A stretch of DNA of 60,860 nt, the filler included, from Dimargaris cristalligena (lineage: Eukaryota), in the NCBI GenBank assembly GCA_003614675.1. It is 11 parts of 11 records of this genome, joined end to end, with 100 filler letters (N's around TTAATTAATTAA, not from the genome) between each part and the next. Parts side by side here need not be neighbours in the genome. Positions count along the whole stretch, not along the records: positions 44,502 to 49,933 come from ML003634.1; 10 more parts are not named here. One strand, written 5' to 3'. Below the pieces are notes generated by a model. That model worked only from the letters and a program-made list of their open reading frames with translations. It did no database searches and had not been told where the DNA came from. This document shows, piece by piece, positions 11,294 through 56,983 of this stretch (within the stretch, counting starts at the first letter, position 1; each line of letters starts with the position of its first letter). The translations under genes and the position numbers were made by a program.

Positions 11294-11621
11294 TAACAGC
11301 CAGCACGACAGGAGGTAGAGGATCCTGCTTTTAACAGGTTCGCATTAGTTAAGGGCAGCATGGCTAAGTTTTATAAGCTACGCAAAAAGACCCGGCGAGA
11401 CTACTTGGGACGCTCCTATTTAGGTCCCTATGCCCTTATGTATTTTGATGATCATAGGCAGCGCACTTTGAAATAACAACAGGGGCCAGCCTTTTGAAGA
11501 AAATATCCTCTTACTCATCCAGAACTACTTATTTCTGACGCTTAACACTACTACTGTAGAGCGTATTCCCGGCTTTGAATCGGGTATCGGCCCTCTTTAA
11601 TTCGGTTGTATAATAATTTTC

Positions 11622-11770
11622 ACAATATGGAAGAAATTCAAACCAGCTGTATAAGGTTGTACATAATATATGTATAGGTGAATATATGTGAGAATATCTT
11701 TTAACCAGTAATATTGGCCTCATCCAATGGATTTTTCGTTATACAGCCTGAATGAACTTCTCCCATATGT
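11622..11770. mobile_element. ~150-bp MITE-like element with ~30-bp imperfect TIRs
   Basis: Left end TATGGAAGAAATTCAAACCAGCTGTATAA; right end TTATACAGCCTGAATGAACTTCTCCCATA. Related ends occur at 15046-15075, 22123-22194, 41603-41631, 46920-46948 and 50734-50762. Confidence 0.7.
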
Positions 11771-13269
11771 TGTTTATTTAGGGACTACATACTGTATAAC
11801 TGCTTGATAAACTAGGCAAAAATACGGTTTAATACCATGCATTAAGGGGTATCGTATGTCAAGGGGGGAGACACACGACTGGCATGCCGGATATTCTTCT
11901 GGTCTATAATTGTTAGGCTTGAACCCATTCCACTACTATTCGTACATCTCCCACACGGCCAGCCCCTTATTTTGGTTATTTAGACCCATGGTCCCATGTG
12001 TCTGTCTGAGTATGCCAAGTACGTCCCCTAAAGCCAATGACGATGCATGCTAAATGTGCCTATTGTCTTGGATAAATGGGGACCTAACGGAAGAATCTCC
12101 TTAATGGTAATGGAAAGGAACACCTATTAATATCCCCAGCGGTGTTACACATTAGTATAGAGATAAAACCATGTTATACGGAGGAGCCAGAATAGACTAA
12201 TAGGAATTCGTGATGATAAAGGGGGGATGCGCGGTAGTATACTAGTCGCCGTCGAATGGCATTGCTTTTAAAAAATACCCAGTAACTCTGCCATAGGGGG
12301 TTCACCTGTGAATCATTTGCACTTTGGTGCCTTTGGCAATCCGATATTGGGAAATCGGATACATTTGCTAAATTTGAAAAGGCCGCTTCGTATATTGGAC
12401 ACCTACAATTTGCCGAGTACCAGTAAACCACTTCGATTATCCTCCCCATCCCGTAAACGAGAGGAGGGGGTCTATTGTCACGATTTACTCTAGCATGCTA
12501 ATAAGAACAAGTATAGTCATCCGCTTACTATAAAATTACGCCGCCCCCAATTGCAGAGGGCCAAGGTTGACCAGGCGTACCTCCCAGCCGCTCCATAGAA
12601 ATCGATCTAATCAGCTGATAATAATTGGCAATCTTTTGGCCTAGGTGGGGAGTTCCACTAGTTAAGTTTATTGTTCTTAAACCCTATTGTGCTTGGGATA
12701 GCCAAGAAATATCTATCCATCACGCAACATAGTGACAATGTCAAGGGCAATTTGGCTATATGGAGGACATTGGGACTCATAGCTAGAATGTGTGTTATTG
12801 TTAACTGTTTATCACAACTAGGAACCCATCATATTACAATTACGCCCAATGACCTAACAATATAGTAGCGCGGATGTTTAGTAATACGCCCAACCGACGG
12901 CACCAATTATGGAGCTCTACATTAATTCAGTGTAGTGAGTAAAAAGCCCAAACGCCCTTTTCAGCTATAACCTAACCTAAGAAGGATTCGGTATAATTTA
13001 GCCAGTCTTATAGGAAAAGGGTTCAGCCACACGCCTTGCTAAATAAACAGAGCTTAGCGAGTCTGCCACAGCGGTAAAATATTCACCTCATTTAGGGCGA
13101 TTATGAATGTACCTTTTTATTGACCCTATTTTTTCCCGAACCACACTACACCACTCTACTTTATCATTTTGACGTTTTAATTATACTCTCTTTTGAACTA
13201 TTCGCGCCACTCAGCCCTCTATATTTATACATTTCTATAGAGACAAGCCCATTTCTCACTTTCACCGCC

Positions 13270-14751
13270 ATGCCCGATTTCCGAAAGCCTAACGATGAGA
13301 CCGACCAGTCGGGGCATTCTTCGCCCATTCACCGCTTATTTTCTTTATTTAATCTTTCAGGACTTCTCCCGAGAGACAAGGGGCCCCCGCAAACTTCGGG
13401 CCCTCACTACCCGACGACACCCCGATTGCCCAGCACCAGCGACTCGCCGCCTGCCCATTCCGACTGGGGTACTACCCAGGCGGGGACAGGCGCGGGTATG
13501 AGCGACCTCGACCCGTTCGTGACCGCCTTCCTGCCTCCCGAAGTCCAGCACATATGGTACCAGCTTCAAGAGGGCACGCTCCCTCGACTCATTGAGTCTC
13601 CGTTTGGTCCTTTCGGTGGGTTTGGCGACTGGGAGTCTGAGGCATCCAACCGTTCGGATGGCAGCCACCCCCCCTTGCAAGGACACCCGCCCAGTATCTC
13701 AGTTCCCCATAATCCCATGGCTGGTGGATCTAAGGCCCTGCGGGACATCATTTTGCGGCCCCAGAATAGCCAGACCTCCCCACCGAGTGACCAAGACCCT
13801 AATCAATCCGCCTTGTCCAGCATGACCCGGACAGCCGAAGGGGAACCAGGCCCATCCACTCTCATCTGGGATACGGTCCTTCCCAGTCTGTTCCATCAAA
13901 TTTTGGATCCTGCCTTCTCATCGTCTATAGATGGACCCCAGCCAGGTCAAAGCCATGGCCAATCCCGTGGTGGCGATAATGACCCAGGCTCCCATTTCTC
14001 TTTAATCACTCAACGTACGTCAACTATTCAGAACCCTGATGGTAGCATTGAAACGACAGTGACTACGTCTGACCCCCACAATGGCGGTAATTCAACCACC
14101 ACCACCCGGACTGATGCCTCCGGCAATATTATCGACGAATGGACCTCGCCCTCGGCGGGCTCAACCCCCTCTAGCTATTCTAAGTCTGCGGTACCTAGAT
14201 CGGCCATCTTAAAAAATATATACCGTACCCGTGGGGACGAGCAGCCAACCGATATGTCTACCGGCGGCCATCCCGCGGCATTAGAAAGCCCACCGTCAGG
14301 ATATGACGTTGTCAGGCAGACCCCTATCACTACCCTTATTAGCCAACTTCTCTTTGGCAATGATGCCCCCACTGACCCATTTGGGCGGTTTAAGTCCATC
14401 CCCCCCAATACTCCATCGCATCCACCTCCCGGACCGGCATTGGTAAATGGGCCGTCCAGTTCCGCAAATGATGAATCCGCTAAGGATCCAGGGGCCCCCA
14501 GGCACACGGCTAGCACCCGTACGACGCCTTCCACATCCGAGGGCCCAATTTTCAGCTACATGGCCGTCCAATCCATAACCCACCCGGACGGTTCGGTAGA
14601 ATATAAGCGGACAATTCGAAACCCCGATGGGACGGAAGAAGTCTTCACCAGCCAGTCGGCGGCGGATTCTTCGACTGGACACTCCGAACCATACTCCCTC
14701 ACTCGGAAAGATCATGGTGGCATTTTGGCCCGTTTATTCGGTCGCTGGTAG
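13270..14751 (+). CDS. Low-complexity protein resembling HAX1, 493 aa
   Basis: ATG in good context (ACCGCCATG), single exon. Motifs LRDIILRP, SITHPDGSVEYKRTIRNPDGTEE and terminal LFGRW. The CDS is solid; the family call is tentative. Confidence 0.7.
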   Translation: MPDFRKPNDETDQSGHSSPIHRLFSLFNLSGLLPRDKGPPQTSGPHYPTTPRLPSTSDSPPAHSDWGTTQAGTGAGMSDLDPFVTAFLPPEVQHIWYQLQEGTLPRLIESPFGPFGGFGDWESEASNRSDGSHPPLQGHPPSISVPHNPMAGGSKALRDIILRPQNSQTSPPSDQDPNQSALSSMTRTAEGEPGPSTLIWDTVLPSLFHQILDPAFSSSIDGPQPGQSHGQSRGGDNDPGSHFSLITQRTSTIQNPDGSIETTVTTSDPHNGGNSTTTTRTDASGNIIDEWTSPSAGSTPSSYSKSAVPRSAILKNIYRTRGDEQPTDMSTGGHPAALESPPSGYDVVRQTPITTLISQLLFGNDAPTDPFGRFKSIPPNTPSHPPPGPALVNGPSSSANDESAKDPGAPRHTASTRTTPSTSEGPIFSYMAVQSITHPDGSVEYKRTIRNPDGTEEVFTSQSAADSSTGHSEPYSLTRKDHGGILARLFGRW

Positions 14752-15339
14752 TAATGTTAATTCGCCCTCGTTTGTGTTTATTCCTAAATGTGTTCAATGG
14801 TCAACAGTTGCACCTCATACTTAAACATCCATGTCAAACACAGTATCATTTCTCGAATTATAAGGCCCGATTATGAGGTCAAGCTATCCAACGGATCTCT
14901 ATTAGATATATCCGAATCGGTATTTTGAGTATTACATAAAATGACGAATGTTCACTTCATTTAGCTATATTTCCGCATATGGGAAAGGTGTTATCTCGTG
15001 GAATGACGGAAGCTCTGTTTGGTGGGGCATGGATATTGCTGAATAATTTGGACGAAATTTGGCCCAGCTGTATATAGTTTTTATTAATATGTTTATGGGA
15101 AAATAGGCAGGATACTCATTTCTAACTGGTTATATTAGTTGGAAATTCATTTCCCCCGTCCCACTGATTCCATCTCTCTGATTGGTTCGTCCTAATTATC
15201 ATTACTACTATTTCTAACTCAATAAAACCAACTGCGGGCATCTGGCTTTGACCCTTGCGGTTCTTTCTCTCTTCTTTAAATCATTTTAGTTGTATCTAAA
15301 GGGACTTGTGTTTACCATTAAATTTATCATCCCAATACT

Positions 15340-22122: not shown

Positions 22123-22194
22123 CATATGGGAGAAGTTCCTTCAGGCTGTATAATGAAAAATCCATTGGATGAGGCCAATATTACTGGTTAAAAG
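22123..22194 (-). repeat. MITE-like family copy, cut by the contig end
   Basis: Near-identical reverse complement of 11698-11769. Confidence 0.85.
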
Positions 22195-38082: not shown

Positions 38083-38549
38083 TACTGTTAGCCCTCTCTC
38101 CCCTTTTGCTTAATCTTGAATAAATACCCGTTTTTGATATGCCTTGGTAGCCGTGCGGGAGTTGATGTTAGTCGCCGTTTGGAATTATTAGGGAGTGTCA
38201 CGAATGTAGCCCTATATTAATTAGGCGGAAGGGCCTTGGCGTGGGTGGGACTCTAGGAGGTGTGAGCGGGGCGGAAGACCCAGGTCCGTTGTTATTCGTT
38301 CCGCCTTACCACAACACCTCCCCCCATTGCCCAATTACCCATTGGTTTCTATCTGTCTCTTTCTATTAAAAATATACATGGACTATAAGTATTTTTCGTT
38401 GCAGGATTTGCATCTCTAACCCACCCTCCTCTTTTTTTTTTGATATTACCACCTGCTTTCCAAACGAGTAGCCACTGCTATTCACAACCGGAGGTTCTAA
38501 ACCCCCTTTTTGTTACCTCACCCCCGTGGGACCAAGTCCGTATATTGCC

Positions 38550-38863
38550 ATGTCGCTCCCCCAAGCGAAGCGCCAGCGCACGAAGGGCCAGTCCGGCGAT
38601 TCCCCACCGACCGTTGATCCCATTGCCACTAGTCCACAGTCGTCCCCATCCCCTGAACCGACGGCGGCCGCCTCTGCGCCCCCACCAGCGAACTACAGCA
38701 CGCTTTACCTCGATTCCGTTAACCGGCGCCTGCTCGACTTTGATTTCGAAAAGGTGTGCTCCGTGTCCCTGCTGCATCAGAATGTGTACGCCTGCCTCGT
38801 GTGTGGCAAGTATTTCCAGGGCCGCAGCAAGGCGTCGCATGCCTACTTCCACAGCATCAACCA
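38550..38863 (+). CDS. SAD1: Sad1/USP39 tri-snRNP protein, 3'-partial (ZnF-UBP)
   Basis: YLDSVNRRLLDFDFEKVCSVSL...NVYACLVCGKYFQGR...HAYFHS. Confidence 0.93.
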
Positions 38864-38963
38864 NNNNNNNNNNNNNNNNNNNNNNNNNNNNNNNNNNNNN
38901 NNNNNNNTTAATTAATTAANNNNNNNNNNNNNNNNNNNNNNNNNNNNNNNNNNNNNNNNNNNN

Positions 38964-39647
38964 ATACTCCCCCTTGCTGCCACCTCTTGGAACAGCAAGT
39001 CTATCATCACCTTTCCCTTTTTATCACCTATCTTTTTGAATAAAGTTCAGTTTTCAAGGATTTGAGTTTAGTTCTTTACAGAGGGTATCCATTTGGAGCA
39101 GATTGGTTATTGAGGTAGTTTGCATCAAGGGAATTTTCTATTTGGAGGAGTTTCATGATGTTTCTGGTACTTATAGCCCACTCAGTCTGGCCAATGAATT
39201 ATCTTAACCTATTAATATCTAATTGACTTATACAGTAGAAGGTCTTGGATAATGATGGGTTCTTGGTGTGGGGTACTGGAATTGTACTACTATCTGTGTT
39301 GTCAAAACTAACATGGGGACCATGGGTAAAAAAGATAGTATCTTTATAGTCAAGTTTGGGATCATTTTCTACAGAGACACAGGCTAGGGAGAGAAAGGCC
39401 AGTGCAAGGCTGGCCATTTGACATATATGCATTTGAAAATAGCCACTTAAGATTAATCAATTAAGGCAAAGGGTGAAGGGGTAATGGCTAAGTCAGAAAT
39501 GATAAAAAAAGACCAGTGAACTAATTGAAGTAAGTAAAGGTAACAATGCTTAACAGTAGATACATTAGGAGAGAGGGTGTGTGCAAAAGCAAAAAAAGAG
39601 GAGTGTCAATGTCTATATATATATATAGTCTGACCCAAAAGTTTTGT
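38964..39647 (+). repeat. Left arm of a 684-bp inverted duplication (contains a family 2 LTR end and most of the mariner left TIR)
   Basis: Reverse complement of 43718-44401. The same 77-aa ORF appears in both arms. Confidence 0.95.
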
Positions 39648-40933
39648 TACTGTGGCTGCAATATTAGTTTCACATGTGCCATCTATTAATGTGAAACAGT
39701 TTTAAATCGGTAAATAAAAACTCTATTATGTGGGAAAATTTGAAAGCTCTAACATTTTTAGTTTTTTTACTACACTATTTTTCCTAAGTCAATTTTTCCT
39801 ACCTCATTATGTATTCAAAATTAGAAATTTGATCAAATATTAGGATCTGTTATAAGCTCAGAAAAAGTGCCAATGAGACCCTAGAGATAATCCAAAATAT
39901 CCATAGGGATGGTGGTGTGACTCTTAAGACTATTTTCCATTGGTTTGTGAATTTTAAAGAAGGCCAGGAAGATATCAAGGATAGCTACCATTCAGGATAC
40001 CCAAAGGAAGGGTGTAGCAAGTAATACATCCAAATAGTCACCAATATCCTGAAAACCAACTGGTAGATAACCACCTGATTGCTTGAGGATATAACTGGAA
40101 TACCTAGGTCTACTATCAATAGGATTCTGATTGAGGATTTACATCTGAAAAAGATCTGCACCTGGTTTGTCCCCCACTAGCTAACTAATAACTAAATGAT
40201 GTCTAGAGTGGATTACAGCTTAGACATAAATAAAATGGGTGAAAATAACCAAAACTTTAGCAGAAGTATTATTACTGGTGATGAGACTTGGTGCTTCCAA
40301 TATGAGCCATCAACAAAATGTAATGGCTCTGAGTGGGTAGGTACTGAAGATCTAAGACTAAAGTAATCACACCTTCTGCTGAGACAAATCAAGACTTTGC
40401 TCATTGTTTTCTTTGGCTCCAAGGGGATTATCTACAAGGAATTTACTCCCCAAGGCCAAACAGTTACTGGTCATTACTACCTGGGAGTCTTAGCATGCCT
40501 ACTGGCAAGGATCAACCATGTAAGGCCAGAGTACAAGAAGTAAGGATCCTGGAGTCTCCTCCAGAATAATATACCTATACATAAGTGTAAAATTATCTGG
40601 GCATATTTAGCTAAAAGAGGTATGGTAGTACTTGACTACCCACTGTATTCACCTGATCTAGCCCCAGCTGACTTCTGGCTATTCCCAAAACTTAAACTGG
40701 CTATGAAAGGGGAGTGTTATAGCTCCATATAGGACATCCAAGATACTGTGACCAACATCCTAAAGGGTATCTCGAAGGATGGGTTTCTAAGCTACTTCCA
40801 CTCATTATTTAGGTGATTCCAGTGGTATATTAATAAAAAAGGACCTTATTTTGAATAAACAGAAAAAAAAGTAAGTACCTTAAACCATTTTCATTTTAGA
40901 GCACTAGTGACAAAACTTTTGGGTCAGACCGTG
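39624..40933 (+). mobile_element. Full-length (1310 bp) inactivated mariner transposon
   Basis: 28-bp TIRs (CACGGTCTGACCCAAAAGTTTTGTCACT; left copy mutated) flanked by TA. Confidence 0.93.
39809..40858 (+). pseudogene. Mariner DD34D transposase pseudogene
   Basis: FVPH*L, IITGDETWCFQYEP, QNNIPIH (decayed HDNAxxH) and YSPDLAPADFWLF. 1050 bp with multiple in-frame stops. Confidence 0.93.
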
Positions 40934-42206
40934 TATATGTATGTGTGTGTATGTGTGGTGTTTACCGGAATATGTATGGGCTTGAGACTAGTGAATAAAA
41001 AAACCCTTAGAAATTCCACAGTCACATTGTGGATCATTAAATGTACCAATACTTTGATGATTAGATCTATGGCAGGTCTATTTTATTCAACAGAGTTGGT
41101 ACAAGCGCATACTAACGGGGAAATGAATTGGGGCAGACTCTATTAGCAAAACAAAAATGTTCTCTCTAAAGTCCAGTTTGACCTTGGCCAGGGAAAGACC
41201 AGTGTCAACATGGGAGGGGGGAGTCCATTCAAGTGACACATGTATCTCGTATGTAACAAAACCAGCCATTGAGTAGTCGAATAAGACATCATGATGGGAG
41301 TTGTCCAATCTAGCTATGTAAGGTTTTCAATAATATATATAGGGGGAAAGTGGGTAAAAAAAAACATTAGCCTGTAATATCTACCTTGCAGTGGCCCACT
41401 CCACCGATAACAGAGCTATTACAATAATTAACCAGCAATATATAATTTGCCCCCGTCGGTTATTATCAAAACCAACTGCCACCGCCTAGTTCCGGGAGAG
41501 CCCTCTTACACCAGCATTCCCTTATCAATAAACCGATTAACAATCCTCCCATTTTGCCCTGCTTGAACGTAACAGTATCATCCAAAGGATATTTTTTTTT
41601 CGTTATACAGCCCAGCTGAACCTCTCCCATTTAGATTATTAGAGAAACTGGAACTCGTGGCCCCATCATTATTGTACTTTAAGGGAAGTGCTTTCCCAAA
41701 AGGTGAGTGCTGTCTGCACCAGTCAATATCCGTAGTTCTTTAGAAGTGGGTGAGGGAGAGGGCGCCCCACCATTTCATTTGTAGCCCAAGTTCAATTAGA
41801 ATATCTTGCGTTTTCAAGCTGATGGGGTCCGCTAGACTTCCCCGGACTAAATTAATGTTGTCGTGAAAAGAGAAATGGACCGACCATGGCAAAAGTTCAA
41901 GGCAATTTCGAGGCATATTTATTCACAGTACAAGTCAAAGAAGTATATGCAACCAGAACAGTATGTGTGCATATGGTAACTTGACTATAATTCATATCTA
42001 AGCTGGTTCTAGGGGTTGGTAATGGTGGTCAATTCCAATATATATATATATATATATAGTAAAGTAAAATAAAATAAAAATAAAAATAAAAAAGAGCATA
42101 GCAACGCAGGTCACCGTTGATTGATAAGAGTAGATGCAGGAAGCTGGCAAATACACAAAACCAAATGAATTTGGCAAAGTCGGGCCAACAAGCTACTTTC
42201 CCCCAT

Positions 42207-43579
42207 TTAGTCATCGATAAACTCATGGGGCAGCGTGAACGTGTCCTTGTGCTGTTCGTACCGGCGATTGGCCTCAATGTACTTCATCAGATCGGCATAG
42301 GTGCGCGGAATCACGCGGGGAGCCGACTGGTCTTCGGCCATTTTAAATGTCAAGTGGAATACATTGGTCGTGACTCGAGTCCGGGAGGAGGGACTGATGA
42401 CATCCGCCGTCACCTGGTCGCGTCGAAAATTGGGGATAAAAAATTAATTTGGTATATCCAGGAAAGTAGTCCACAAAAACAAAGGGTTAGAGAACTTAAA
42501 CGTGAGCTTGGCAATGGCTGTTTTACTTAGCCACTGATTGTACTCCATATGTGGAGTTGGACAGGCGAAAGAGCATAATTGATTGATTCCATAAGGGATA
42601 GTAGTATATTCCCGACACGCATAATGTTCAGCCTAATAACACCATGGCAGTAATCAGCAATCCTTTTAAATAGAAAACTTACCGATACTTCAAAGCTGGC
42701 GCCGGGAAGACCTGACGAATAGGTGACCTGGGCGGCAAGGTTAAGCATAGAGCCGATGGGAACAGGCATCTTAAACGCAATGTCGTCAATGGCTAATAAG
42801 CGCGGGATCTGTCTAGAGAACAGGTGGGCCTCGGCGAAAGAGAGCTCCAAGGCCAGACGCATCAAGTAGCCACCAAAGATTTTTCCGTGGACGTTTTGGT
42901 CCTAGTTATTGAGCCGGATTGCCCAAAAATAGAGCGTCAAAGACACGTTAATAAGCGGGAGGGATACTCCTATTAGTGATCATCGGTATATTTTAGAAGG
43001 TACATCTCTGCATTGGGCTCATTCGAATACGATTTAAGTAAATAGGTAATAATTAATTGTGATATATGTTTTACCTCGGGCATCGTCACGATAAATGACT
43101 CGATTTTGGTGGCATCTGCCCATACAACATTATCGGGTTTCTTTGACGAAACAAATCGGTGTTCTACGGATAGGTAGGGCATGTGGTTAGGGAGTAACCG
43201 GTCGTTTGAGTGGAATGCAAGGGGAGGTGCTAGAATGCATGGATGACCAGGGGTTGACTGTACGGCTTGTTGGTATGATACAGTAGACACGCTGGGACTT
43301 ACCGGTGTACTCGTTGGATTCTAAATATAGTTTATGCATTAGCTCGCGTTCCTCGGCAGACGGGGGTACTTTAAGGAGTGAATGCTCCGCCCGCTGGATT
43401 TTGCGGCGTCGGAGGTCATCGGCGATAGCGGAGATACGTTTCTCCTTTTCCGTGTGGAGGAGCAGCGGGTTGATTTTGGCTTTCTTCTGGGTTTCTTTGT
43501 CCCGCGCCGCCATAGTGAAATGGGCAGCTAGGGCCAACTCCTTGGTCGCAGAGGCACCTTCACCCGATAGCGCCTCCAC
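42207..43579 (-). CDS. Hotdog-fold acyl-CoA thioesterase (ACOT9-like), 5'-partial; exons ~43579-43303, 43163-43075, 42901-42683, 42413-42207
   Basis: AHFTMAARD, PPSAEERELMH, NVHGKIFGGYLMRLALEL and TTNVFHLTF...VIPRTYAD; GT-AG introns. Confidence 0.88.
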
Positions 43580-43717
43580 CTTGAGATAGACTAATTCGGG
43601 GGATAAGGGGCATGCAAGTAGAGGGGGAGATGTTGTTCCCAAAATTTAAATGTAAATATTGTTAATAGGCGTTGGGGTGTAAATAGTTTCATTCCCAAAG
43701 TTATTGAGCCCTATCAT

Positions 43718-44401
43718 ACAAAACTTTTGGGTCAGACTATATATATATATAGACATTGACACTCCTCTTTTTTTGCTTTTGCACACACCCTCTCTCCTAA
43801 TGTATCTACTGTTAAGCATTGTTACCTTTACTTACTTCAATTAGTTCACTGGTCTTTTTTTATCATTTCTGACTTAGCCATTACCCCTTCACCCTTTGCC
43901 TTAATTGATTAATCTTAAGTGGCTATTTTCAAATGCATATATGTCAAATGGCCAGCCTTGCACTGGCCTTTCTCTCCCTAGCCTGTGTCTCTGTAGAAAA
44001 TGATCCCAAACTTGACTATAAAGATACTATCTTTTTTACCCATGGTCCCCATGTTAGTTTTGACAACACAGATAGTAGTACAATTCCAGTACCCCACACC
44101 AAGAACCCATCATTATCCAAGACCTTCTACTGTATAAGTCAATTAGATATTAATAGGTTAAGATAATTCATTGGCCAGACTGAGTGGGCTATAAGTACCA
44201 GAAACATCATGAAACTCCTCCAAATAGAAAATTCCCTTGATGCAAACTACCTCAATAACCAATCTGCTCCAAATGGATACCCTCTGTAAAGAACTAAACT
44301 CAAATCCTTGAAAACTGAACTTTATTCAAAAAGATAGGTGATAAAAAGGGAAAGGTGATGATAGACTTGCTGTTCCAAGAGGTGGCAGCAAGGGGGAGTA
44401 T
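43718..44401 (-). repeat. Right arm of the 684-bp inverted duplication
   Basis: Reverse complement of 38964-39647. Confidence 0.95.
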
Positions 44402-45225
44402 NNNNNNNNNNNNNNNNNNNNNNNNNNNNNNNNNNNNNNNNNNNNTTAATTAATTAANNNNNNNNNNNNNNNNNNNNNNNNNNNNNNNNNNNNNNNNNNN
44501 NATGTAAGGACAAGCTGAGAGCAACCATATGCGCTCCGCTATACCGAAAAAGTCCAGAGTGAGGAACCCATTTGATTAAACTGCACTATCCGATTCGAGT
44601 TGATTGTGAGTACCTGGCCTCTATTGGCCAATGCAGTTCAAGGCGACGAGGGAATCGAATATGGTCGATGGCATACTCAGGGGACCAACCCTAAGTCGGA
44701 CTGTCCCAAGATAGGGGCTTCTCCAAATAGCTCATAAGCTCAAGGGTTCTACATTAGCCCGGGCCAGACAGGCAGGGTCGAGTCCCTGGGGGCGGGGAGA
44801 GGAGCGTACCAGGGACTCCTAAGGGCCAGCTCGTATCAATAATTACTCCATTTTCACAGTACAAAATATGTTGGGCCCGAATATGCCAGATTTTGACTAC
44901 CTTATTGGTGATTTTTATGGGATGCCGCGCTCTAACTAGACCTTCAAAATGGCATTTTACTGTAAAAACCGTGCCCCTTGAAGAGATGGGTACCGGATAT
45001 GACGGCCCCTTCCCCGGTCCTTGGGCAATTAAGCATTCGCCAGCAGTCCAGTCGAACATTTGGCATTTTTTTTTTGGAGCAGTCGATATCGATCACGATG
45101 CACATAAATGTAAAACTATAAATAGTGCCAAGTTCCTGTCCTCTTCTAAAAAATTATCATCACATCCATCTCCTTCTCACCCAGAACTCCCAGCTCTTTC
45201 CTTCCCCTCCCCCCAACCCATCACC

Positions 45226-45450
45226 ATGCAGTCCCACGCCCAAACCACTACCGCCGCTGCCCAGCCCACCGCTCAAGCCACCATGAGCCACGATGCTCCT
45301 CATGGTCTGCCCTTCCCCATCCCCGCCCGCCTCAAGCTCTTCTGGGCCCTGGCTAAGCGTTTCCTTAAGCCTTGCCTGAAGAAGGTCGTTGAGATCCTCC
45401 GCGGGGTTATCAAGCGCGTTGGGAACACCCCCGCCGCCCACCACGCTTAA
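45226..45450 (+). CDS. Small 74-aa protein with a cationic amphipathic helix
   Basis: TATAAATA at ~45117, pyrimidine-rich leader, ATCACCATG context and strongly C/G-ending codons. Confidence 0.72.
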   Translation: MQSHAQTTTAAAQPTAQATMSHDAPHGLPFPIPARLKLFWALAKRFLKPCLKKVVEILRGVIKRVGNTPAAHHA

Positions 45451-46499
45451 ATACCAATCGGCCCCCCTTCCTCGATCTGAACTCCCTGACTGGCTTCATT
45501 AACCTTGTACAATGGTCTATTTTTGGCTTGGTAATTTGGTTCTGGGGCCCATATATGGTAATGATTTATTCGTATAGGGGAGTTGAAGCCCTGTCGAGGT
45601 CAATGGCTGTGTGGAGTAGTACACTTATTGGGGGAAAGCGCCATCCAGTAGGGCCAAGGCATCACCCCGACCCTTGTCGTGGCCATAATCTGGAATATCT
45701 AAATTAGTTTGTTTTAAGTTGCTAGTTTTGCCGGTCAGTATAACATGGCTCTTGGCGAAGGCCATTGCACCAACTGGCACCGTGAGCTGTGACCCAGCCA
45801 TATAATCCCTCAATTGATACGACGGGGTAACCTGACTGTCGGAAAAAAAATATACCAGCTTTACTAGATTACCACAGGTACTTTATGGCTCCCCTAGCTA
45901 TTTAACCAATAAACTCCATACTTGGCCGCTCTACTTTTAACTCTAGCTTAGGAGAAACTACTTGCCAGCTCCGTTGCCAATAACAGCTGAAGGATGCGAT
46001 GGAGGGTGGGAGGTGGCCCCTCTCGGACTACTCCTAGCCTCATAGGTAGCCTAATTGGACCCGGTCTAGTTACACGGGGAAGATGGTGGAACTGGTGAGA
46101 GGGCCAGTGAAATATAATGCTGTACAACATGGAGTGAATGGAAGATTTTTTCAATGGCAACCTTAGGTAGTGGCTTTTCCTGCCCCGCCTCCAGTCTATA
46201 AACCGGTCCTATATAAATCCGGCAATTCTGGATAGTGGGGTTATCGCCAATAACACAAAAAATATATATATACAACATGCGTCATTGTAATAACACTGCA
46301 GTTTAATATTATACGGGGCCGTTTGCGGTAGTTCAACAATGACTCGTGAAACTCTGCTCCCCCTTTTTTATAGCCAGAATTATATAAATAGTCGATGGTG
46401 GAATCTCTGATGACCAATTCTCGAGACTATCCCCATTTTAGTTGTTTTTTTCACTTATTCAGCCTATAACCACTTCCCTTGACGAGAATTAATTTCATC

Positions 46500-48188
46500 A
46501 TGCGATTTATTATCGTTGGGTTTACATCATTATTCATGGCGATGGCCTTGGCCTTGGCGACTACCGTGCGCGCGGGCAGGCTTTACGACCTACTGTTTGG
46601 CTCTTCAGCCAAAAAGACCAATCTCCAAGATCTCCCCACGGAAATTAAACAGCTTATATGGCAAAATCTAGAGGACAAGGATTTGGCGAACACCCGACAA
46701 ATCAATCACCATTTCAAAGCCATATCCGACTTTACTCGGAAAAAGTATCTTGCCGAGGTAAGTTATCCAGGAGGAGTAGATTGTTAATAGTATAATACAT
46801 ATAATGGTTCTACCTAGTTCAACTAGGCTATATAATGAAAAATCCGTTGGATAAGGCAAACGTTACTGTTTGAAAATGAATCTCCTGCTGATTTTCCCCT
46901 ACATATATCAGTTAAGACCTTATACAGCCGGGTCGAAGTTCGCCCATACGCTAGTCTCATTTATGGTGGCTTCGAGAGCTGCCCCATAGTATGCCCCCAC
47001 TAAACATACCCCCAACTGAACTATTTTATCTATCATCTGGAAATACCCCTCAAAATTACTGTGGTATAGGCCCTGCGATTATTCCGCGAATTCACTGGCA
47101 ATACCCAGGGCCCAAAGGCAACATCTACCCAGACTCGAGTCAACCTTTGGTTTAAGATCAGCCAGACCGAGTTGGTGAGCCACGCCATGGAGGTCATTTA
47201 CCGAACCTGGCTATTAAAACAATTCAAACCCACTCTATTACCCAATCACGTGTCGGTGGCCACCTACGAGCAATTTCTGGAACACAGCATTAAAGATACG
47301 GCGCTCCTTCCAAGTTCCTGGCCTTCTGTGGTTCTGGGCGAGCTGGAGGATACCCACCTGGCCCGGTCGTTCCCCATACTCTATATGGCCAGGCATGGTC
47401 ACATTGATCTTCTGGTTGCCGCAATCTGTCACTTTTGGACCGACAAGGAACTGCAGCAACTCATCAGCGACCAAGTACTAGACCAACTCCCAACTAACTT
47501 TCAGCGAATGCTGGGTGATACTTTCCAGGCCGATTCGCAAGTCGAACGACTGGCTTTGGTGAAAGATACCTTTCACGATATGACTATTGCCGTGGTCGAT
47601 GCCCTTGTTAATCAGCCTAAAATGCCCCACGTTCGGGGTTTTATAGAGAAACTACACGCACGTATTTTTCCGTTCCCTGCCCAGCCTGGTGTTCCGGATC
47701 ACCCAAAGCGGGTTTTTAATCGGATTTTTCGGTTTACGCTATTCCGGTTAGCCGAGCATAGCCAAAGAGATATTATAAGCCAACTCAACCAACTGGTACA
47801 GTTGCCAGTCCAGACAGCTAAGCGTATGCTCACATGCACTCTCTCCATGGGCTGGTACCAGGCTTTCGCTACACTCCAGCAGGCCCTAACCAATATTACT
47901 AATGGAGATGCCCCTGTCGAACACGCCGATTCATCAGGTTGCGCCCACTTCCTTTACAACACCAATGTTTTCCAATACCGTCAGGGCCAGTTCGCAGCTC
48001 GAGTAGCGGTCCAACAATTCGGTGAGCTAGTGCCAGTTTCGAAATACGTCCTTTTCACACGTCCTCGTGACGTTATAGAACCTGGCCGAATTCCGTTAGA
48101 CTACATTTTCTTCGATATAGTTGGCCATGCACCCTATCGTGCTGTGCCCATTTTAGTAGCATATGCTCGTCATATTTTCCGATTATAA
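46500..48188 (+). CDS. Putative secreted F-box protein, ~458 aa; exons 46500-46757 and 47070-48188
   Basis: Signal peptide MRFIIVGFTSLFMAMALALATTVRA; F-box NLQDLPTEIKQLIWQNLEDKDLANTRQINHHFKAIS; a phase-0 GTAAGT...TAG intron joins it in frame to the 338-aa ORF; TATATAAATA upstream. Confidence 0.8.
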
Positions 48189-49055
48189 TGGGCGAACTAT
48201 GAATGCGGATTTATATGGGAAGACTCGAATTTTTTTGACTAACCATCCTTTATCAAAAAAATCAAATACTAGAAGAGAGTTTTGGCTGTCCTCGGTACGC
48301 CCGCTTAAATTACATACACCTTAATCACTAATCCCATTGGGGCAAGGTAGTGAAAAAAAATAATAAATAATGGATATGGGTTCCCACAAGTACTGGTCTC
48401 GCCAACCCAGCAAATCAGGTTGGCTTTATAAGACGGGTTAGGGGCCCAAATTGGGTAATCTTCGTATTTATTAAACAGGTTGTTTTGAGTTGTTGCCCTT
48501 GCTCCTTGCCATTGGTCGGTGGTTGGTGCCTCTCACTTCGGTGGGGGGGTTTTCCGGCCACTGTCGCTGGGCGGGTAGTTTTCACTCGGGTGTCTCTATC
48601 CCAACCTCAGAATAACGGGGGCAGGACTCGTATGAGACTGTTTCCAATTCCTTCTATCCTTAGCAGTCGGCTGGTATTTCTGGTGCAGGTTTGGTCTGTC
48701 GAAAGGCGGCCAACTTTTCCGGGGTTAGCTAACCTGTTTAACTAGGAGGAGACACTCTTTCATTATCTATATTTATATAAAAAAGGCTACAGAAAACTCA
48801 TATACGCTGCCATTGTCGTGCTGTAATATCTCCAGAAGCCCTGGTCTATTTAATTTTTGGTTGGCCGAATTGTGAATAACAGGATGGCCTACAAGAACCA
48901 AGTGGCCTATTGACTATAGACATGATATCTAAGCCTGCCATTGTTACTTAGGAAATAGCTGGGCATATCTATAGTACCCCACAACTCCTAAAAGTAGAGC
49001 TGCTTTTTTTATATATAAATTGAAAAGGTTCACATTGCTCATCATCTCATGGCCT

Positions 49056-49135
49056 TTTAACCACCCAACTTCATAGTACCCTTTACCACCCAACTTCATA
49101 GTACCTTTTACCACCCAACTTCATAATACCATTTA
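49056..49135 (+). repeat. Minisatellite, 3 x 25 bp
   Basis: Unit TTTACCACCCAACTTCATAGTACCY. Confidence 0.9.
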
Positions 49136-50033
49136 TCAAGGTTGCAATTAGTTCGCTGCATCCGAAAATAAACCAATGCTTGACTGAGGAATTTCTAAAG
49201 TGCGAGAAAGGCTGTGGGCGGCCCGGTTTGCTTCCCTGAGAAATTCTAGGCAATTGTTCTACGTTAGCGACCCGAGAGTCCGGCAGAACCGGTTAGGCAC
49301 ATTATTTTGGGCAGCCATTCAGCTTCGGTATTGCCCAGGCGAGAGAACCCAAATATTATAGTCTCATTCGTTCTTCTGGACCGGCACAACTCCAGATATG
49401 GGGTACATTCCTTTGTGGGGTATTAGGGTGCCTCTCCTTTCCTTTAATATCTATAGGAAATGGGTTGTCGATGGAGAAAGCGGTGGGTCTCTATAGCTTT
49501 ACTGGATTTCCTTGAATGCCACCCTCTTTTTTTTATTATTTTTTTACACCCCATTACCCTCCCCCCTCGTCCCCTTTCGATTGTAGCAGAGGGGTGGTTA
49601 AACAGGTAAAGGGGGCGGCAACATTGTTTTACAAGTGGATCATTGCTGCCTTTCACGTAAACTTAGATTGCCCAATTAGACTAGCGGTCAAAGGGAATCA
49701 TCGTTGTCTGCGGTACTCCGATTGCCAACCGCTTGATTGTAAAGGCCTACCGGATCACTTAGTGGCGGACGAACGAGGCCATTCCTACATATTGATAGTC
49801 CCGCCCACTTCCCCAAAAATCGGCGATAAGCTATATCTGATCATAAGGATTGCCTGGAGCATGCGGCTCTCCCCATATAGCCTTGCCGGTATCATTTAGT
49901 TGGTATCGACCCACCCACCCACCCCCCCCCCTTNNNNNNNNNNNNNNNNNNNNNNNNNNNNNNNNNNNNNNNNNNNNTTAATTAATTAANNNNNNNNNNN
50001 NNNNNNNNNNNNNNNNNNNNNNNNNNNNNNNNN

Positions 50034-50564
50034 TACCAACTATAGGTACACCCGTCTCGAAGATACAGGGTGTAAATGCAAAAAGTTCTATATGGTTTTA
50101 TTGAGCCAAAGTAAAGCTATAATGTTGCAGACTAGCGACCACGGTTGCTGGTCTATCTGCAATTAAAGTAAGAGGTCGCTAAGGGATTAGGGCTGGGCCG
50201 CGGGGTGGGATATTGGGGTTCAACGTTGCGGCGAACTAGGGGCTGTTCAGGATTAAGTCCCGATTTTGAGGATTAAATGGATACCGAGATTTCGGGGCGA
50301 AATCAAGTCGGTGAAGAGATACGGATAGCAGCAACGGCTACAATGAGGTTATGGAAGAGCAAAGGCAACTGTATCGCAAACACGGTTTTAGAAGGGCAAG
50401 AATGGGTTTAAATGCAAAAGGTGAGGTGGGGGGACTTGATGGAGATGGAAACAGGCTATGTTGGGTAAAACGGGTATCAAAAACCAGAACTGCAGATCCA
50501 CAAAGTGCTGCTATATTTTTAAATATATATTGCAAATAGCAGGACCTTGCTAATGACATTAGGT
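50034..50564 (+). repeat. 531-bp repeat, copy A
   Basis: Apparently identical to 54918-55448 and to the reverse complement of 52257-52787. Confidence 0.95.
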
Positions 50565-51370
50565 CACACTATATTTCCTTGATCGATATTTGCTTTGGTG
50601 AAATATGGCCTATCCCTAGAGGGGCTCAATTGTGATTAGGCGAATAAAGTAAACGAACTCCTTCATTCGGCTCCCCGTTTACCCACAAATAGAGCCGAGG
50701 CCGTGGTCCCCTCCGCTGATTCCATGCAAAACCTTATACAGCTGGGCAGAAATTACATACATGTCCAGTTCGTGGTTAGGCATACTGGCATAAAAAAAAC
50801 TACATACAAAAGGGAAATCGAACTTTACCACGTCGGTGTATTAGGAAGCAGTACGGATTGGTTTGTTCATCAATTTTTAACTATACTACTCCCCAAGAGA
50901 AATGGCCGCATTTTTAAAGTGAATTTACCAAATATATTATACCACATTATCGCTGTAAATTATTCTGGTTTGGTCTTACATATACCTGTAGACTAGGGAA
51001 CGTAGTAGCCCCACCGATGTGTATACAGCTACTACGAAGTAATATATTCATGGGATAACAGTCATAAACAATACAATTATAAACTACGCTCAACAACTGT
51101 TGGAAAACCATAATCCCTAATCTTGAAGGCAATGCCCGCCGCCTCAGTAACATCCCCACTTAAATCCAACCCTAATACTTTACTGGTGATCATAAGGGCC
51201 CTCTAACTTCTCGTTCGAATCCATCTCTATAACCAGTGTAAAATTTTTGAAACATCTGGGTGTGTACCCACCAATTCCACTATTACTCCTCTAGATGGCC
51301 AATCATCCCTCCCCACCTTTCAATTCAACTACAGCTTTTTAGTTCACATTCGCTTCAGTAAAATTAATCT

Positions 51371-51697
51371 ATGTTCATGCGGCAGTTCGGGGGCGACGAC
51401 TCGGCCAACTTCGGTAGCGCAATATCCCTAACCGACATTCGCAACGAAGTCTACATTGGCGAACCGTTTGCCGAACACGAACAAGGCCTGTTATACCACT
51501 GGGACCCACGCGGCAAGAAATTCAACTGCCACCGGTCCACCCTTGAGCAGGGTCACCAGCGCTTCGGTAGTAATATTATGAGCACGGACCTCGACGGGGA
51601 CCAGCGCACCGACCTCGTGGTAACCTCCTCGCACGCAAGCCAGGGCAGCCGGCTCTCCGGGGTTGTCCATATTGCGCTCACTGCCATTGACCATTAA
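51371..51697 (+). CDS. C-terminal FG-GAP fragment of a GPI-specific phospholipase D-like protein
   Basis: NFGSAI...VYIGEP and RFGSNIMSTDLDGDQRTDLVV...GSRLSGVVHI, resembling the GPLD1 C-terminus (ARLSGALHV). No upstream exons recognised. Confidence 0.7.
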   Translation: MFMRQFGGDDSANFGSAISLTDIRNEVYIGEPFAEHEQGLLYHWDPRGKKFNCHRSTLEQGHQRFGSNIMSTDLDGDQRTDLVVTSSHASQGSRLSGVVHIALTAIDH

Positions 51698-52256
51698 CTC
51701 TGCGCGCGGGTAAACCACCGACTACGCCCGATTTATATGAACCCAATGTAGTATTTTTAGACGGGCGATTTAGCCCAGCTGTACGTATATTGTTGGGGCC
51801 ACCCCACCCCCTTGTACATACATGTGTATATATGCCATGATTAAACCTTCATAAACAACACTCCAATAAACAGACCAAGTGAGGGAGAGTATCAGCCAAC
51901 CATGGACCATCCAGGCAGGTGATTGGGGGCAAAATGTTTTTATAAAATAAACTTTTGGGGGTAAGATTGGGGAGGGGGCGGAATTACGGATACTAAAGAG
52001 AGAGGGTGAATTAGTGCGCGATAAGGAGAAATACATAATGGGGCATTTCAAGACGGAACAAGGTGTCTGACCGGCCCCACGTTCTAGGGAGGTGGCCGAT
52101 GGGGTATGCACAGAATGGAGGGGGGATGGACGATGCGGGGCAATAATGGGGGAGGGGAGATGGTGGATGAGGGGACTATTTACACGAACAGAACAATCCA
52201 AAAGAAGAAGAAGTGAAGATAGGAGGGAGGGGGAACAGTCAAGGGAATATAGTGTG

Positions 52257-52787
52257 ACCTAATGTCATTAGCAAGGTCCTGCTATTTGCAATATATATTT
52301 AAAAATATAGCAGCACTTTGTGGATCTGCAGTTCTGGTTTTTGATACCCGTTTTACCCAACATAGCCTGTTTCCATCTCCATCAAGTCCCCCCACCTCAC
52401 CTTTTGCATTTAAACCCATTCTTGCCCTTCTAAAACCGTGTTTGCGATACAGTTGCCTTTGCTCTTCCATAACCTCATTGTAGCCGTTGCTGCTATCCGT
52501 ATCTCTTCACCGACTTGATTTCGCCCCGAAATCTCGGTATCCATTTAATCCTCAAAATCGGGACTTAATCCTGAACAGCCCCTAGTTCGCCGCAACGTTG
52601 AACCCCAATATCCCACCCCGCGGCCCAGCCCTAATCCCTTAGCGACCTCTTACTTTAATTGCAGATAGACCAGCAACCGTGGTCGCTAGTCTGCAACATT
52701 ATAGCTTTACTTTGGCTCAATAAAACCATATAGAACTTTTTGCATTTACACCCTGTATCTTCGAGACGGGTGTACCTATAGTTGGTA
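52257..52787 (-). repeat. 531-bp repeat, copy B (inverted)
   Basis: Reverse complement of copy A. Confidence 0.95.
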
Positions 52788-54917
52788 TTGTCCAAGCAGT
52801 AATGCCATTACAGCATTTATTTTGAGTGACAATGAGCCCTCAATTAAATACATTGCCTGAAGGAACGGGAAATGGAGCAACCCTGGTTTCTGAAACTTCC
52901 TTTGTGGAAATTTGAATAAGTAAGGGAGTAGTGTCATTACTTTTATAAAATATGGCTGATCAAACATTTGGCAAATAATTGGCTGTAAATCATGGAGCTT
53001 AATCCAATTAGCGCGGTCAGTAACCTTGATTCCATATAATTGCCTAGAAATAGCTATGCTGGGGGAGTCGAAATATCCTGGCGTCATTAGATCCTCTTTA
53101 AGTAGAAATAAAACCGTATAATGATAAGTATACAAGGCCTAGCGGGTTATCTATAGGGTACGATTAACGAAGGAAATGATAGGCCGGCCGGATCATGGGG
53201 TCTACATAATCGTAGGGATATTTCTAAATAGTGGACTGTGTGAGCCGAACCTTTTACCAAGCAGCGGGAAATGCAATTGGATGATTGCAAGGAAGTAGCT
53301 ATTGAGGCCGTGTAGGTCAGTTTGGGATTAATTGGTTGGTGCTTATCAAATGAACGGGTGAAGTATATGGTGGTGAGTAGGCCATTCAAAGTATTGAGTA
53401 TACACTATGGCCAAATGTATAAATGGGTAAAATTTAGTACAAATCAGCTCCATTTTGAATAATGGTTAGTTAGAGCCAGTCTTAACTGTAAAGTTTCGGT
53501 GAGTAAAAGGCGAATTCGTTGTATAGCGGGGTTGGGCATCCCCTATTGAATATTCACCAACTCAATTGGCCCCGAGCAAGGAAGACAACCTTAAAATGCA
53601 ATTCCCCACCCCAACTCTAGGCAAATTCTCGCTAATTAGGGCTGAGCTGCTCGCCTCGACCTGGCTTGTGAACTGACAGGCAACTTCTTGAGGGAGGATA
53701 CGTCTTCCAGCCATACAAGGTGCACCACAATGGCCTGGCTAATCAGGCCATGAGGGAAACCTCAATAGCTGATGGTAGACGCTGGGTCTTAATTAGGATA
53801 GATTTTCCCCCTTTGATGGATGATATCATAACATAGAGACAGCTGTAGTACAGTGGCAGACCCTGACTCGGATAGGGCTTGAAGCGGACTTAGGCTCTTA
53901 ATCCATCGATCAATGGACTTAATGATAGCGGTGACTGACTCTGAGTAGTGTTAGCTGGTAGCTAATCCGGCAGCTGGGAGGCATGGGTGTACTGCCGCTC
54001 AAGAAAGCCCATTATTCAAATATACACCCTTTTAGATGGTGAAGAATGAATTTCCACAGGTGGTTCCATTCATCGGGGGCTCAGTTCCGTAATTGCTGGT
54101 CGGTAATATGGCTATACTACTTCTTTGCGGGTGGCTTTGTCTACACCAATATGCGAAATTGAATCAGAAATCGACTATGGCCAATCAATCAATTCACCAC
54201 CAAGCGGGTATCTAGTTTTATTTGGAATGGTCCAGTCGTGGTTCGCACCATCTCCTGCAACCCAAATTCAATACCGGGCGACAACTTGGAAGTCAGGCCA
54301 GCCCCGGCCTTCATCATTACCTCCCTCGGTGAATGTTAACCGCGAACGGGGAATATCCCTCCAAATGACGGTTTTCCAGGAGTTCATTAACCCGTAGACC
54401 TAATCATCCCCTTCCGGGCTGATTAAGAATACCCTGGAGTTGGTGGAAGCGCGCAAACCTAATACACCGTTCATGTCGACCTATTCTGCCACTATACTCA
54501 CTGTCCAACTAAAATGAGTGTCAGCAGTTTTGGCATGTATATATACAGAGAAACCCACCTTGACTAGTTAATACTACATATGCTATTCCTTTCAAGAAAA
54601 ACTCGGAAAGGTATATATATATTTAATCACACTCCACGTAAATTTAAAGCTCTTCTCCAAAATAACCAGGGAAGTCCTCCTACTCGAGTTGACGGACCAA
54701 AAACGGACCTTGAATTTATCCCAAGAAACGTTCCTATAGTTTCCGACCAAGCAGCCTGCTGCTCCACAAACTGGAACCAAACCACCCCCTTGTACATCCA
54801 AATTGGCCAGTAGTGGATGAGCTATAAGGCACGCCGCCGCGTTATACTGTATTCCAGAAACCGTAGATATCATCCGCCAATAGCTGGCGGGGCTATTTTT
54901 TAAAGTCAGTTAGTTCG

Positions 54918-55448
54918 TACCAACTATAGGTACACCCGTCTCGAAGATACAGGGTGTAAATGCAAAAAGTTCTATATGGTTTTATTGAGCCAAAGTAAAG
55001 CTATAATGTTGCAGACTAGCGACCACGGTTGCTGGTCTATCTGCAATTAAAGTAAGAGGTCGCTAAGGGATTAGGGCTGGGCCGCGGGGTGGGATATTGG
55101 GGTTCAACGTTGCGGCGAACTAGGGGCTGTTCAGGATTAAGTCCCGATTTTGAGGATTAAATGGATACCGAGATTTCGGGGCGAAATCAAGTCGGTGAAG
55201 AGATACGGATAGCAGCAACGGCTACAATGAGGTTATGGAAGAGCAAAGGCAACTGTATCGCAAACACGGTTTTAGAAGGGCAAGAATGGGTTTAAATGCA
55301 AAAGGTGAGGTGGGGGGACTTGATGGAGATGGAAACAGGCTATGTTGGGTAAAACGGGTATCAAAAACCAGAACTGCAGATCCACAAAGTGCTGCTATAT
55401 TTTTAAATATATATTGCAAATAGCAGGACCTTGCTAATGACATTAGGT
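54918..55448 (+). repeat. 531-bp repeat, copy C
   Basis: Direct copy of A. Confidence 0.95.
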
Positions 55449-56983
55449 AGACTATATATNNNNNNNNNNNNNNNNNNNNNNNNNNNNNNNNNNNNNNNNN
55501 NNNTTAATTAATTAANNNNNNNNNNNNNNNNNNNNNNNNNNNNNNNNNNNNNNNNNNNNATATATCTGCTCTACCTTCTCCTCCTCATATGTTGTATGCT
55601 TATCCAATCGTTGCCTACTCCGCCCCATACTTTCTTTATCATCTAAGGATATTTCTAAGTAAACCGCGGAGAAGAGCGGGAAGTAGTTTTTTAATGCAAT
55701 CAACTGAGCCTCATTCATGATGTTCTTGATGCATCCTTTATCGCTGTAGTCTAGCTTTTTTATTATTATTACTATTATTATTCAAAAATGTATTTTCACC
55801 CGCACCCTTTTCCAATCGTCAAATTTACCTACTCAACCCGCCCTCTCTCCCTTGCTATTTCAACGCCAATTTATCATACATTTCTTGAACAATAAACCCC
55901 ACAACTTATTTTTGGTGTCGCTATTTCTCGACTGGATCATTCCCGGACACCACCCCACCTAAAAGCAAATTAAAAGGAGTTCAAAATGGAACCAGCTAAT
56001 GCAAAGGCAGAGGAGTTGAGGGGCTGTTGCCAGAGACCCCCACTCTTTAAACTACCGCCTATTGCGAAAGTTCGCCAATGATTACATTTGGAATTAGTAT
56101 GACACCATCAGTCACTCGTAGTTTCTGCATTTATAAAATCCTTTGCTATAATATTCTTAATTCCCACTGACATGCGGTGCAGGGGCTATTTGATGCCAGT
56201 TGGTCTAGTATACTCTGCTTTGGCAATGGGTTTCCGGTCCTATTACTACAATCATCTAAAGATGAAGTCAGCTTATAAATAATACCCCAATTGCCATTCC
56301 GACTATGCCGTGGATTGTTCCTTCTTTCACTTGCTTAACGGGCAAATTGCCTAAAGACTTTAATATTACGATCCCCGGAAGCTATGAACTGCATCTAGGT
56401 AGTCCTAGGCGTTTAAGACCTGGCCCAATTTTCGCAATTTAATGGCCATCCCGCCACTACAATAGCATGTACTGTTTCAATCCATCTTGCAAAAGTAGGT
56501 GAATTCGAATGGATTGGTGGTAAACGTATAATCAATTCACTCTTTAATCAAAATGTTTGAAGATAGAAAATAAAGGGAAACTGGTGTCTAAAAAAAAAAA
56601 AGATAAAAAGGGGGAACCAGAATTATCCAAAAAGATAAATCATTGTACATGGGTGGATAATTGCCAAGAGAGTAGTAAGAATAGGCAAAAGTGGGTGTAA
56701 TAAAAAATGAACATAAATTTGAAAAATGCGGATAGAATATAGTCGAATTGAGATGATCTTCAAAAATTAAAATTAAAGTAAATAAGTAACCAGGACCTTG
56801 CAGAGCCCATGGAAAACGAAAGAAATGGCCAGGTCGATGACAGCCGCGTTGGAGTAAAAAAATGTATGATTAACTCGCCAACGCAACACATTCACCGCCT
56901 CGGAGTAATGTCGAGGGCAAAGTAAATCAGCATTAATAGTGAAATACCTGTCGCTAATGATAAAGAGCTGTGCCCTAGATTCT

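Follow-up and report, generated by a model that had tools for sequence, protein, structure and literature searches.

In the 60,860-nucleotide stretch of DNA (filler included) from the fungus Dimargaris cristalligena that is analysed here (GenBank assembly GCA_003614675.1) and called the window below, positions 46500-48188 of the plus strand hold a two-exon gene. The spliced product of 458 residues has an isoelectric point of 9.3, three cysteines and one N-x-S/T sequon (NIT, residue 361). It is built of three parts, a strongly hydrophobic N-terminus, a very likely F-box, and a C-terminal domain for which no relatives were found. In kind this is an F-box protein, and what is new is that the F-box is combined with a strongly hydrophobic signal at the N-terminus and with a putative substrate domain lacking relatives. 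An earlier note on the same DNA had taken the gene for a fungal effector delivered into host cells to redirect the Skp1-cullin-F-box (SCF) ubiquitin ligase of the host. The features of the locus are collected in Table 1, and the possible roles of the protein are weighed at the end.

Gene structure and the public gene model

The start codon at 46500, with A at position -3, is the first in-frame ATG past a TAA at 46467, which closes the exon-1 frame ten codons upstream. Two further ATGs, at 46395 and 46410, lie between the TATA-like box and this start codon. An upstream open reading frame (ORF) of 19 codons begins at 46410, shares the frame of the start codon and ends at the TAA at 46467. Whether this upstream ORF is present in the mRNA hinges on where transcription starts.

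Table 1. Features of the F-box gene locus; positions are those of the window.
Feature	Position	Strand	Details
TATA-like box (TATATAAATA)	46381..46390	+	Found by eye; 110-119 nt 5' of the ATG
Exon 1, hydrophobic N-terminus and F-box	46500..46757	+	86 codons, 258 nt, phase 0
Hydrophobic segment, candidate signal peptide or signal anchor	46506..46574	+	Residues 3-23 (F3 to V23), FIIVGFTSLFMAMALALATTV; VRA at 23-25
F-box (very likely)	46623..46730	+	Residues 42-77, LQDLPTEIKQLIWQNLEDKDLANTRQINHHFKAISD
Intron	46758..47069	+	312 nt, GTAAGT...TAG, GC 0.39
High-copy dispersed repeat, MITE-like	46816..46948		About 135 nt; 133 of the 312 intron bases
Exon 2, orphan domain	47070..48188	+	372 codons and TAA
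Second intron of the NCBI model	47610..48410	+	Coding to 48188 in our model; weak GTTAAT donor; removal loses 192 open codons and the native stop

Exon 1 runs into a consensus donor (GAG/GTAAGT at 46758) and is joined in frame to the 372-codon ORF of exon 2. At the acceptor (TATAG/G, 47069/47070) the TAG at 47067-47069 is also the stop closing the exon-2 frame upstream, and in that frame the exon can therefore start no earlier than 47070. A second in-frame acceptor, CAG/G at 47108/47109, was noticed by eye, and its use would give a product shorter by 13 residues. The two may be alternatives for the predicted splice, and the choice between them needs RNA.

The in-frame splice had been proposed in the earlier note, and an independent annotation arrived at the same first intron (junction ...RKKYLAE/ALRLFREF...). 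This annotation is the NCBI entry 'hypothetical protein H4R33_000280 [Dimargaris cristalligena]' of 259 aa, which matches at 100% identity and is the sole protein matching either exon in two very large libraries. The searches covered 5.8 billion clustered proteins (1 match of 1585 candidates) and 1,835,955,588 representative proteins, and another search gave 1 match of 221 candidates.

Codon usage was scored with codon tables from five Pfam-confirmed neighbours, which encode a TOR kinase, a WD40 protein, an Ank-DHHC palmitoyltransferase, a porphobilinogen deaminase and a P5 ATPase. The log-likelihood ratio of exon 1 is +0.30 per codon in the proposed frame, as against -0.64 and -0.47 in the other two. 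Exon 2 scores +0.21 per codon in the proposed frame with negative values in the other frames, and the intron is negative in all three. Within exon 2 the score is unevenly spread, the first half having +0.40 per codon and the second +0.02. The length of the ORF is far beyond chance. None of the mononucleotide shuffles of exon 2 stayed open (0/20000), and for the second half taken separately 3/20000 did so, the other five frames there having 7-13 stops. Furthermore, no indels are listed for the ORF in three DNA runs, in all of which it is intact. One DNA run differs at 2 of 2301 bases, by a synonymous T>C at 47687 (Pro) and a G>T at 47712 that changes Val to Phe; with only two differences the polymorphism is unusable as a test of constraint. 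On the strength of the sequence we infer that the gene is expressed.

The public model departs from ours at both ends. Its start is Met13 (MAMALAL...), so that half of the hydrophobic stretch is lost. Past ...VVDAL, it skips the 801 nt between 47609 and 48411 (GTTAAT...CAG) and ends in QIRLAL. In our model exon 2 is probably coding throughout its second half, and we think that the second NCBI intron is an artefact. A gene finder may have favoured skipping 47610-48188 because the codon bias of that part is almost nil. The 259-aa model very probably has an incorrect 3' end, and its start is perhaps incorrect as well.

The three parts of the predicted protein

The N-terminal hydrophobic segment had been described in the earlier note as ending in VRA, and both the segment and the VRA are indeed there. 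The best 19-residue Kyte-Doolittle mean is 2.18 (residues 3-21), the usual threshold for a membrane span being about 1.6. The eight top windows are all N-terminal, and on this scale residues 3-23 are the only such segment in the whole protein. The segment is flanked by MR on the N side and by RAGRLYDLLFGSSAK, with a net charge of +2, on the C side. Charges across it are even, as MR and the free amino group precede it while R24, R27, D30 and K38 follow (K39 is also basic). This balance allows an orientation with the N-terminus out and the C-terminus in, the orientation itself not being readable from sequence.

The core is followed by TTVRA, which puts V at -3 and A at -1 of a putative cut between A25 and G26. 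The (-3,-1) rule for the cleavage sites of signal peptides calls for small residues at these positions. The hydrophobic core of cleaved signal peptides is typically some 7-15 residues long; the core found here has 18-21 residues, which is longer than typical for cleaved signals and enough to span a membrane. Judged by its sequence, the N-terminus is about as well explained by a cleavable signal peptide as by an uncleaved membrane anchor. A start at Met13 would leave about 10 hydrophobic residues. Past the putative cleavage site no RxLR or PEXEL-like host-targeting motifs were seen by eye.

The LxDLPxEI motif of the earlier note was likewise found where it had been placed, and in the translation it supplies the core F-box residues L45-P46, E48-I49, I53, L57, L62, I68 and F72. 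The F-box consensus has L-P, E-I/L and spaced hydrophobics, and its helix 3 contains a conserved aromatic residue. Exon 1 matches four Pfam models, all of the F-box type: F-box-like PF12937 (E 3.1e-4, 20.9 bits, cut-off 24.3, profile positions 1-35/47), PRANC (E 2.5e-3, 18.6 bits, cut-off 25.8), F-box PF00646 (E 2.5e-3, 18.1 bits, cut-off 20.5, profile positions 1-36/43) and F-box-like_2 PF13013 (E 2.6e-3, 18.2 bits, cut-off 21.6). The F-box models had no match in the 44 neighbouring ORFs of at least 70 aa or in 12 long ORFs of the window. When all six frames were searched with a loose regular expression for the F-box, three matches came up, of which this site alone is stop-free. In the ESM Atlas the first match to residues 26-86 is a cluster named 'F-box domain-containing protein' (0.92), in which 58% of the members carry PF00646; it has 135 features in common with the query, which counts as weak support by the calibration of the tool. 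Taken together, the comparisons make it very likely that residues 42-77 form an F-box.

The C-terminal part, an unrecognised domain of about 370 aa in the earlier note, has kept that status. Its 372 residues match no Pfam family at E<=10, find nothing except themselves among the representative proteins, and give one chance-level match to PDB sequences (ribosomal protein uL13, E 0.061). No internal repeats were detected, the alternative alignment in an hhalign self-comparison having E 0.85 and blastp returning the self match only. In the ESM Atlas the best score is 0.78 and that of ankyrin clusters 0.76, which is below the useful level, and the recognition score is low (1228). AlphaFold, run on exon 2 without an alignment, gave mostly helices at a predicted local distance difference test (pLDDT) score of 36.5. 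By the tests made, the domain as predicted is a genuine orphan and not a leucine-rich repeat (LRR), WD40, Kelch or ankyrin domain. To the eye ARHGHIDLLVAAI resembles ankyrin, but this idea was dropped, as Pfam finds no Ank; neither the resemblance nor the Atlas score of 0.76 counts as evidence. Paralogues of the gene are absent from the window (best other tblastn match E 0.48) and from the protein libraries.

The intron repeat and the surrounding region

The intron harbours one copy of a short repeat that is dispersed in high copy number. In three DNA runs the summed contig depth in the bin 46816-46892 amounts to 7876-32594, against baselines of 18, 8 and 193. Diverged copies lie at 11626-11758 (minus strand), 22143-22193, 15049-15121 (minus strand) and 11163-11290. 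The copies have common subterminal inverted motifs, GGCTGTATAA ... TTATACAGC, and other copies have a TATGGGAGA 5' end. It is for these inverted motifs and this 5' end that the repeat is called similar to miniature inverted-repeat transposable elements (MITE-like). A search of the intron with a repeat tool gave 0 pairs of inverted repeats.

The gene is situated in about 18 kb (38100-56900) of 40-46% GC, between the Ank-DHHC gene (to 38082) and the P5-type ATPase gene (from 56984). Among the 44 ORFs (at least 70 aa) scanned in that region the sole Pfam match is an FG-GAP repeat at 51368-51694 on the plus strand (E 5.7e-6). The longest other ORFs there, 44758-45450 (230 aa) and 51770-52258 (162 aa), are without coding-like codon usage. 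An Rfam search of 45500-49500 gave one match, at chance level (E 0.99), and a tRNA scan of the whole window found 0 genes.

Farther away, a frame of 1423 codons on the minus strand (2-4270) runs off the edge of the window; it has reverse transcriptase, RNase H and integrase of a Ty3/Gypsy-type pol and is apparently intact over this length. Two more long ORFs, 9129-11105 (minus strand, 658 codons) and 13096-14751 (plus strand, 551 codons), have no Pfam match and a codon-usage score of about zero relative to conserved genes. These could be remnants of transposons or additional orphan genes, and the copies of the short repeat at 11163-11758 adjoin them. Finally, twenty runs of 44 N are distributed over 5484-55559 in ten pairs, with 12 bases between the members of a pair and about 5560 bases from one pair to the next. 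Those nearest to the gene are at 44402-44501 and 49934-50033. The N runs look like masking and not like assembly gaps.

Possible roles of the F-box protein

An F-box can function only with Skp1, which is cytosolic or nuclear, and any reading of the gene has to place the F-box accordingly. The one that we prefer, with a probability of about 0.35, is that the gene encodes a membrane-tethered, cytosol-facing receptor subunit of the SCF ligase of D. cristalligena itself. The F-box would dock on the Skp1 of this ligase and the orphan domain would pick the substrate. The hydrophobic segment, left uncleaved, would hold the protein on the endoplasmic reticulum or the mitochondrial outer membrane of the fungus in a predicted topology with the F-box facing the cytosol. 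Anchored in this way, the protein would steer ubiquitylation of substrates at that membrane.

There are parallels for such an arrangement. SCF-FBXL4 on the mitochondrial outer membrane needs its targeting sequence and its F-box alike (PMC10308361, in excerpt), and yeast Mdm30 is partly mitochondrial (PMC3578726, in excerpt). As far as the excerpts describe them, both resemble the Dimargaris protein in having a targeting element N-terminal to the F-box, with SCF action at a membrane surface (PMC10308361, PMC3578726). To place an F-box at the surface of an organelle is established cell biology. The example of FBXL4 shows that a targeting element before an F-box need not mean export, which weakens the argument of the earlier note (PMC10308361, in excerpt). 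However, human FBXL4 has LRRs and a discoidin-like domain and is unrelated in sequence to the Dimargaris protein, which is known from sequence alone. The F-box-only (FBXO) proteins are also comparable, as they too have an N-terminal motif of about 40 residues, LxDLPxEI...I...L...DL...R.I....F, and then a larger putative substrate-binding domain. Here the differences are that the Dimargaris motif scores below the gathering level, that it is preceded by a hydrophobic N-terminus, and that the C-terminal domain matches no F-box-associated domain. In addition, the gene is single-copy as judged from the window and the protein libraries, without the family expansion known from secreted F-box effectors, and this was counted in favour of the membrane-anchored receptor.

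A number of observations weigh against the anchored receptor. MR at the N-terminus, the polar TTVRA and the small residues at -3 and -1 resemble a normal cleavable signal peptide, which would leave the F-box in the lumen. The protein libraries hold no relatives from other fungi, though these would be expected of a housekeeping membrane SCF receptor. Codon bias is 0.21-0.30 per codon as compared with 0.42-0.70 in the neighbouring conserved genes, and the GC content at third codon positions is 0.51-0.56 as compared with 0.63-0.83. The F-box assignment itself is also touched. Each of the four Pfam matches stays under its gathering score, so the profile check suggested in the earlier note returned F-box models and nothing else, yet none above its cut-off. 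Against PDB, phmmer of exon 1 gave 0 matches, and Foldseek of the exon-1 model gave 0 matches at E<=0.001 and one at E 2.3, with no F-box fold among them. The model used, a single-sequence AlphaFold prediction, is poor (pLDDT 61.3), with helices at 47-60 and 63-84.

The export of the protein, as proposed in the earlier note, is a possible but rather unlikely alternative. According to it the signal peptide would be cut after VRA (residue 25) and the mature protein of about 50 kDa would be exported at the haustorial interface into the host fungus. There the F-box would bind host Skp1 and the orphan domain would bring host proteins for degradation. Once cleaved and translocated, the protein would have an F-box that makes sense only in the cytosol of another cell. 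MR, hydrophobic core and TTVRA are arranged in the n-h-c layout, and V and A at -3 and -1 fit the cleavage-site rule; against this stands the core, which exceeds the usual length for cleaved signals. The NCBI model, moreover, starts at Met13. The earlier note was right about a fungal producer, and the way of life of the fungus agrees with export, D. cristalligena belonging to the mycoparasitic Dimargaritales (PMC9866270, in excerpt). The want of homologues in the protein libraries and the atypical codon usage are hallmarks of effector candidates, and the surroundings of 40-46% GC, with a Pfam match in 1/44 ORFs scanned, also speak for export. On the other hand, inspection revealed no evident translocation motif past the putative cleavage site, and export, uptake and expression are all putative. 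It was further estimated, with no count made, that one signal-like F-box gene per genome is about the false-positive yield to be expected from several dozen F-box genes.

Eukaryotic precedents for export do exist. The SSGP-71 effectors of the Hessian fly carry an F-box and are reported to interact with host Skp proteins (PMC4617103, in excerpt), and as F-box proteins of a eukaryotic parasite they are the model for the effector reading. In Rhizophagus clarus, NLS_30765 is predicted to be secreted and has an F-box-like domain (PF12937), otherwise with 'no significant hits' (PMC4746824, in excerpt). As a candidate from a fungus it comes close in these features to the Dimargaris protein; nonetheless, it is a bioinformatic candidate only, and no protein-library search showed similarity between the two. 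The bacterial effectors Legionella AnkB and Ralstonia RipG/GALA similarly bring an F-box into the host to use its SCF (PMC4617103, in excerpt).

All these systems also differ from the Dimargaris protein. SSGP-71 is a large expanded family with LRRs, whereas the Dimargaris gene is a singleton, in the window and in the protein libraries, with a predicted helical orphan domain. AnkB and RipG/GALA are injected by type III or IV systems and have Ank or LRR domains, while the route of the Dimargaris protein could only be a Sec-type signal. The LRR or Ank substrate-binding repeats of the known host-delivered F-box effectors were not found behind the Dimargaris F-box (Pfam, E<=10).

In the open-access literature, nothing linking D. 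cristalligena to an F-box was found. Among the matches listed for F-box effectors, which are mostly bacterial, no title names a fungal one. Similarly, among the matches listed for mycoparasite secretomes with F-box and signal peptide, nothing is on topic by title or opening of the abstract. The statement of the earlier note that no characterised fungal family has this architecture agrees with the titles of the matches listed, but it has to be qualified because uncharacterised fungal candidates of the same layout, such as NLS_30765, are already in print (PMC4746824, in excerpt). The earlier interpretation is partly supported as a whole, its effector mechanism being an open but unlikely possibility.

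A third explanation, which we consider improbable, is that of an ordinary soluble F-box protein translated from Met13 or Met15. The first 12 codons would then be 5' leader, and AMALALATTV, the short hydrophobic stretch left over, would play no part in targeting. It is common for F-box proteins of fungi to lack a recognised second domain, and the ATG of Met15 (46542) has G at both -3 and +4. The start of H4R33_000280 at MAMALAL also points this way, but the 3' end of that model is demonstrably poor, 192 open codons having been dropped there. The context of the ATG at 46500, with A at -3 and first in its frame after the TAA at 46467, stands against a later start. So does the TATA-like box, noted by eye, the distance of which (110-119 nt) would make 46500 the likely first AUG. 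Even with a start at Met13 the 10 N-terminal residues stay hydrophobic.

Just as improbable is the view that the locus is a young or decaying orphan, in which an F-box exon was joined by chance to a recent or fast-drifting ORF, barely or not expressed and unsettled in function. Homologues are missing from both the 1.84 billion representatives and the clustered proteins. The second half of exon 2 has next to no codon signal, the AlphaFold and Atlas results for exon 2 are poor, and a transposon-like insert lies in the intron. The strain differences, one synonymous and one Val-to-Phe, carry no signal of constraint. Set against this are the 372-codon open frame, which no shuffle reproduced, the clean GTAAGT...TAG intron, and the ORF for which the three DNA runs list no indels and which all of them have intact. 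Only the proposed frame has a positive coding score, every other one being negative, and the F-box motif is well preserved. To any other explanation we give a slight chance.

If the protein is an anchored receptor of the fungal SCF, as we tentatively prefer, it would be one more lineage-specific F-box protein, and its interest would lie chiefly in the substrate domain that has no relatives. The very probably faulty public model of 259 aa bears on any secretome count for D. cristalligena, whichever role the protein has. To our knowledge, SCF hijacking has so far been shown for bacteria, viruses and one insect. Doubtful as it is on present evidence, the full scenario is that a haustorial mycoparasite secretes an F-box protein into its fungal host, plugs into the Skp1-cullin ligase of that host and, by means of a domain of new fold, marks host proteins for destruction. 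In this case the Skp1 of the parasite and that of the host would be similar, each being fungal. Export of the protein would extend SCF hijacking to the parasitism of fungi by fungi. Were the scenario true, it would be the first case of ubiquitin-ligase hijacking by one fungus in another and the first functional secreted F-box effector of a fungus.

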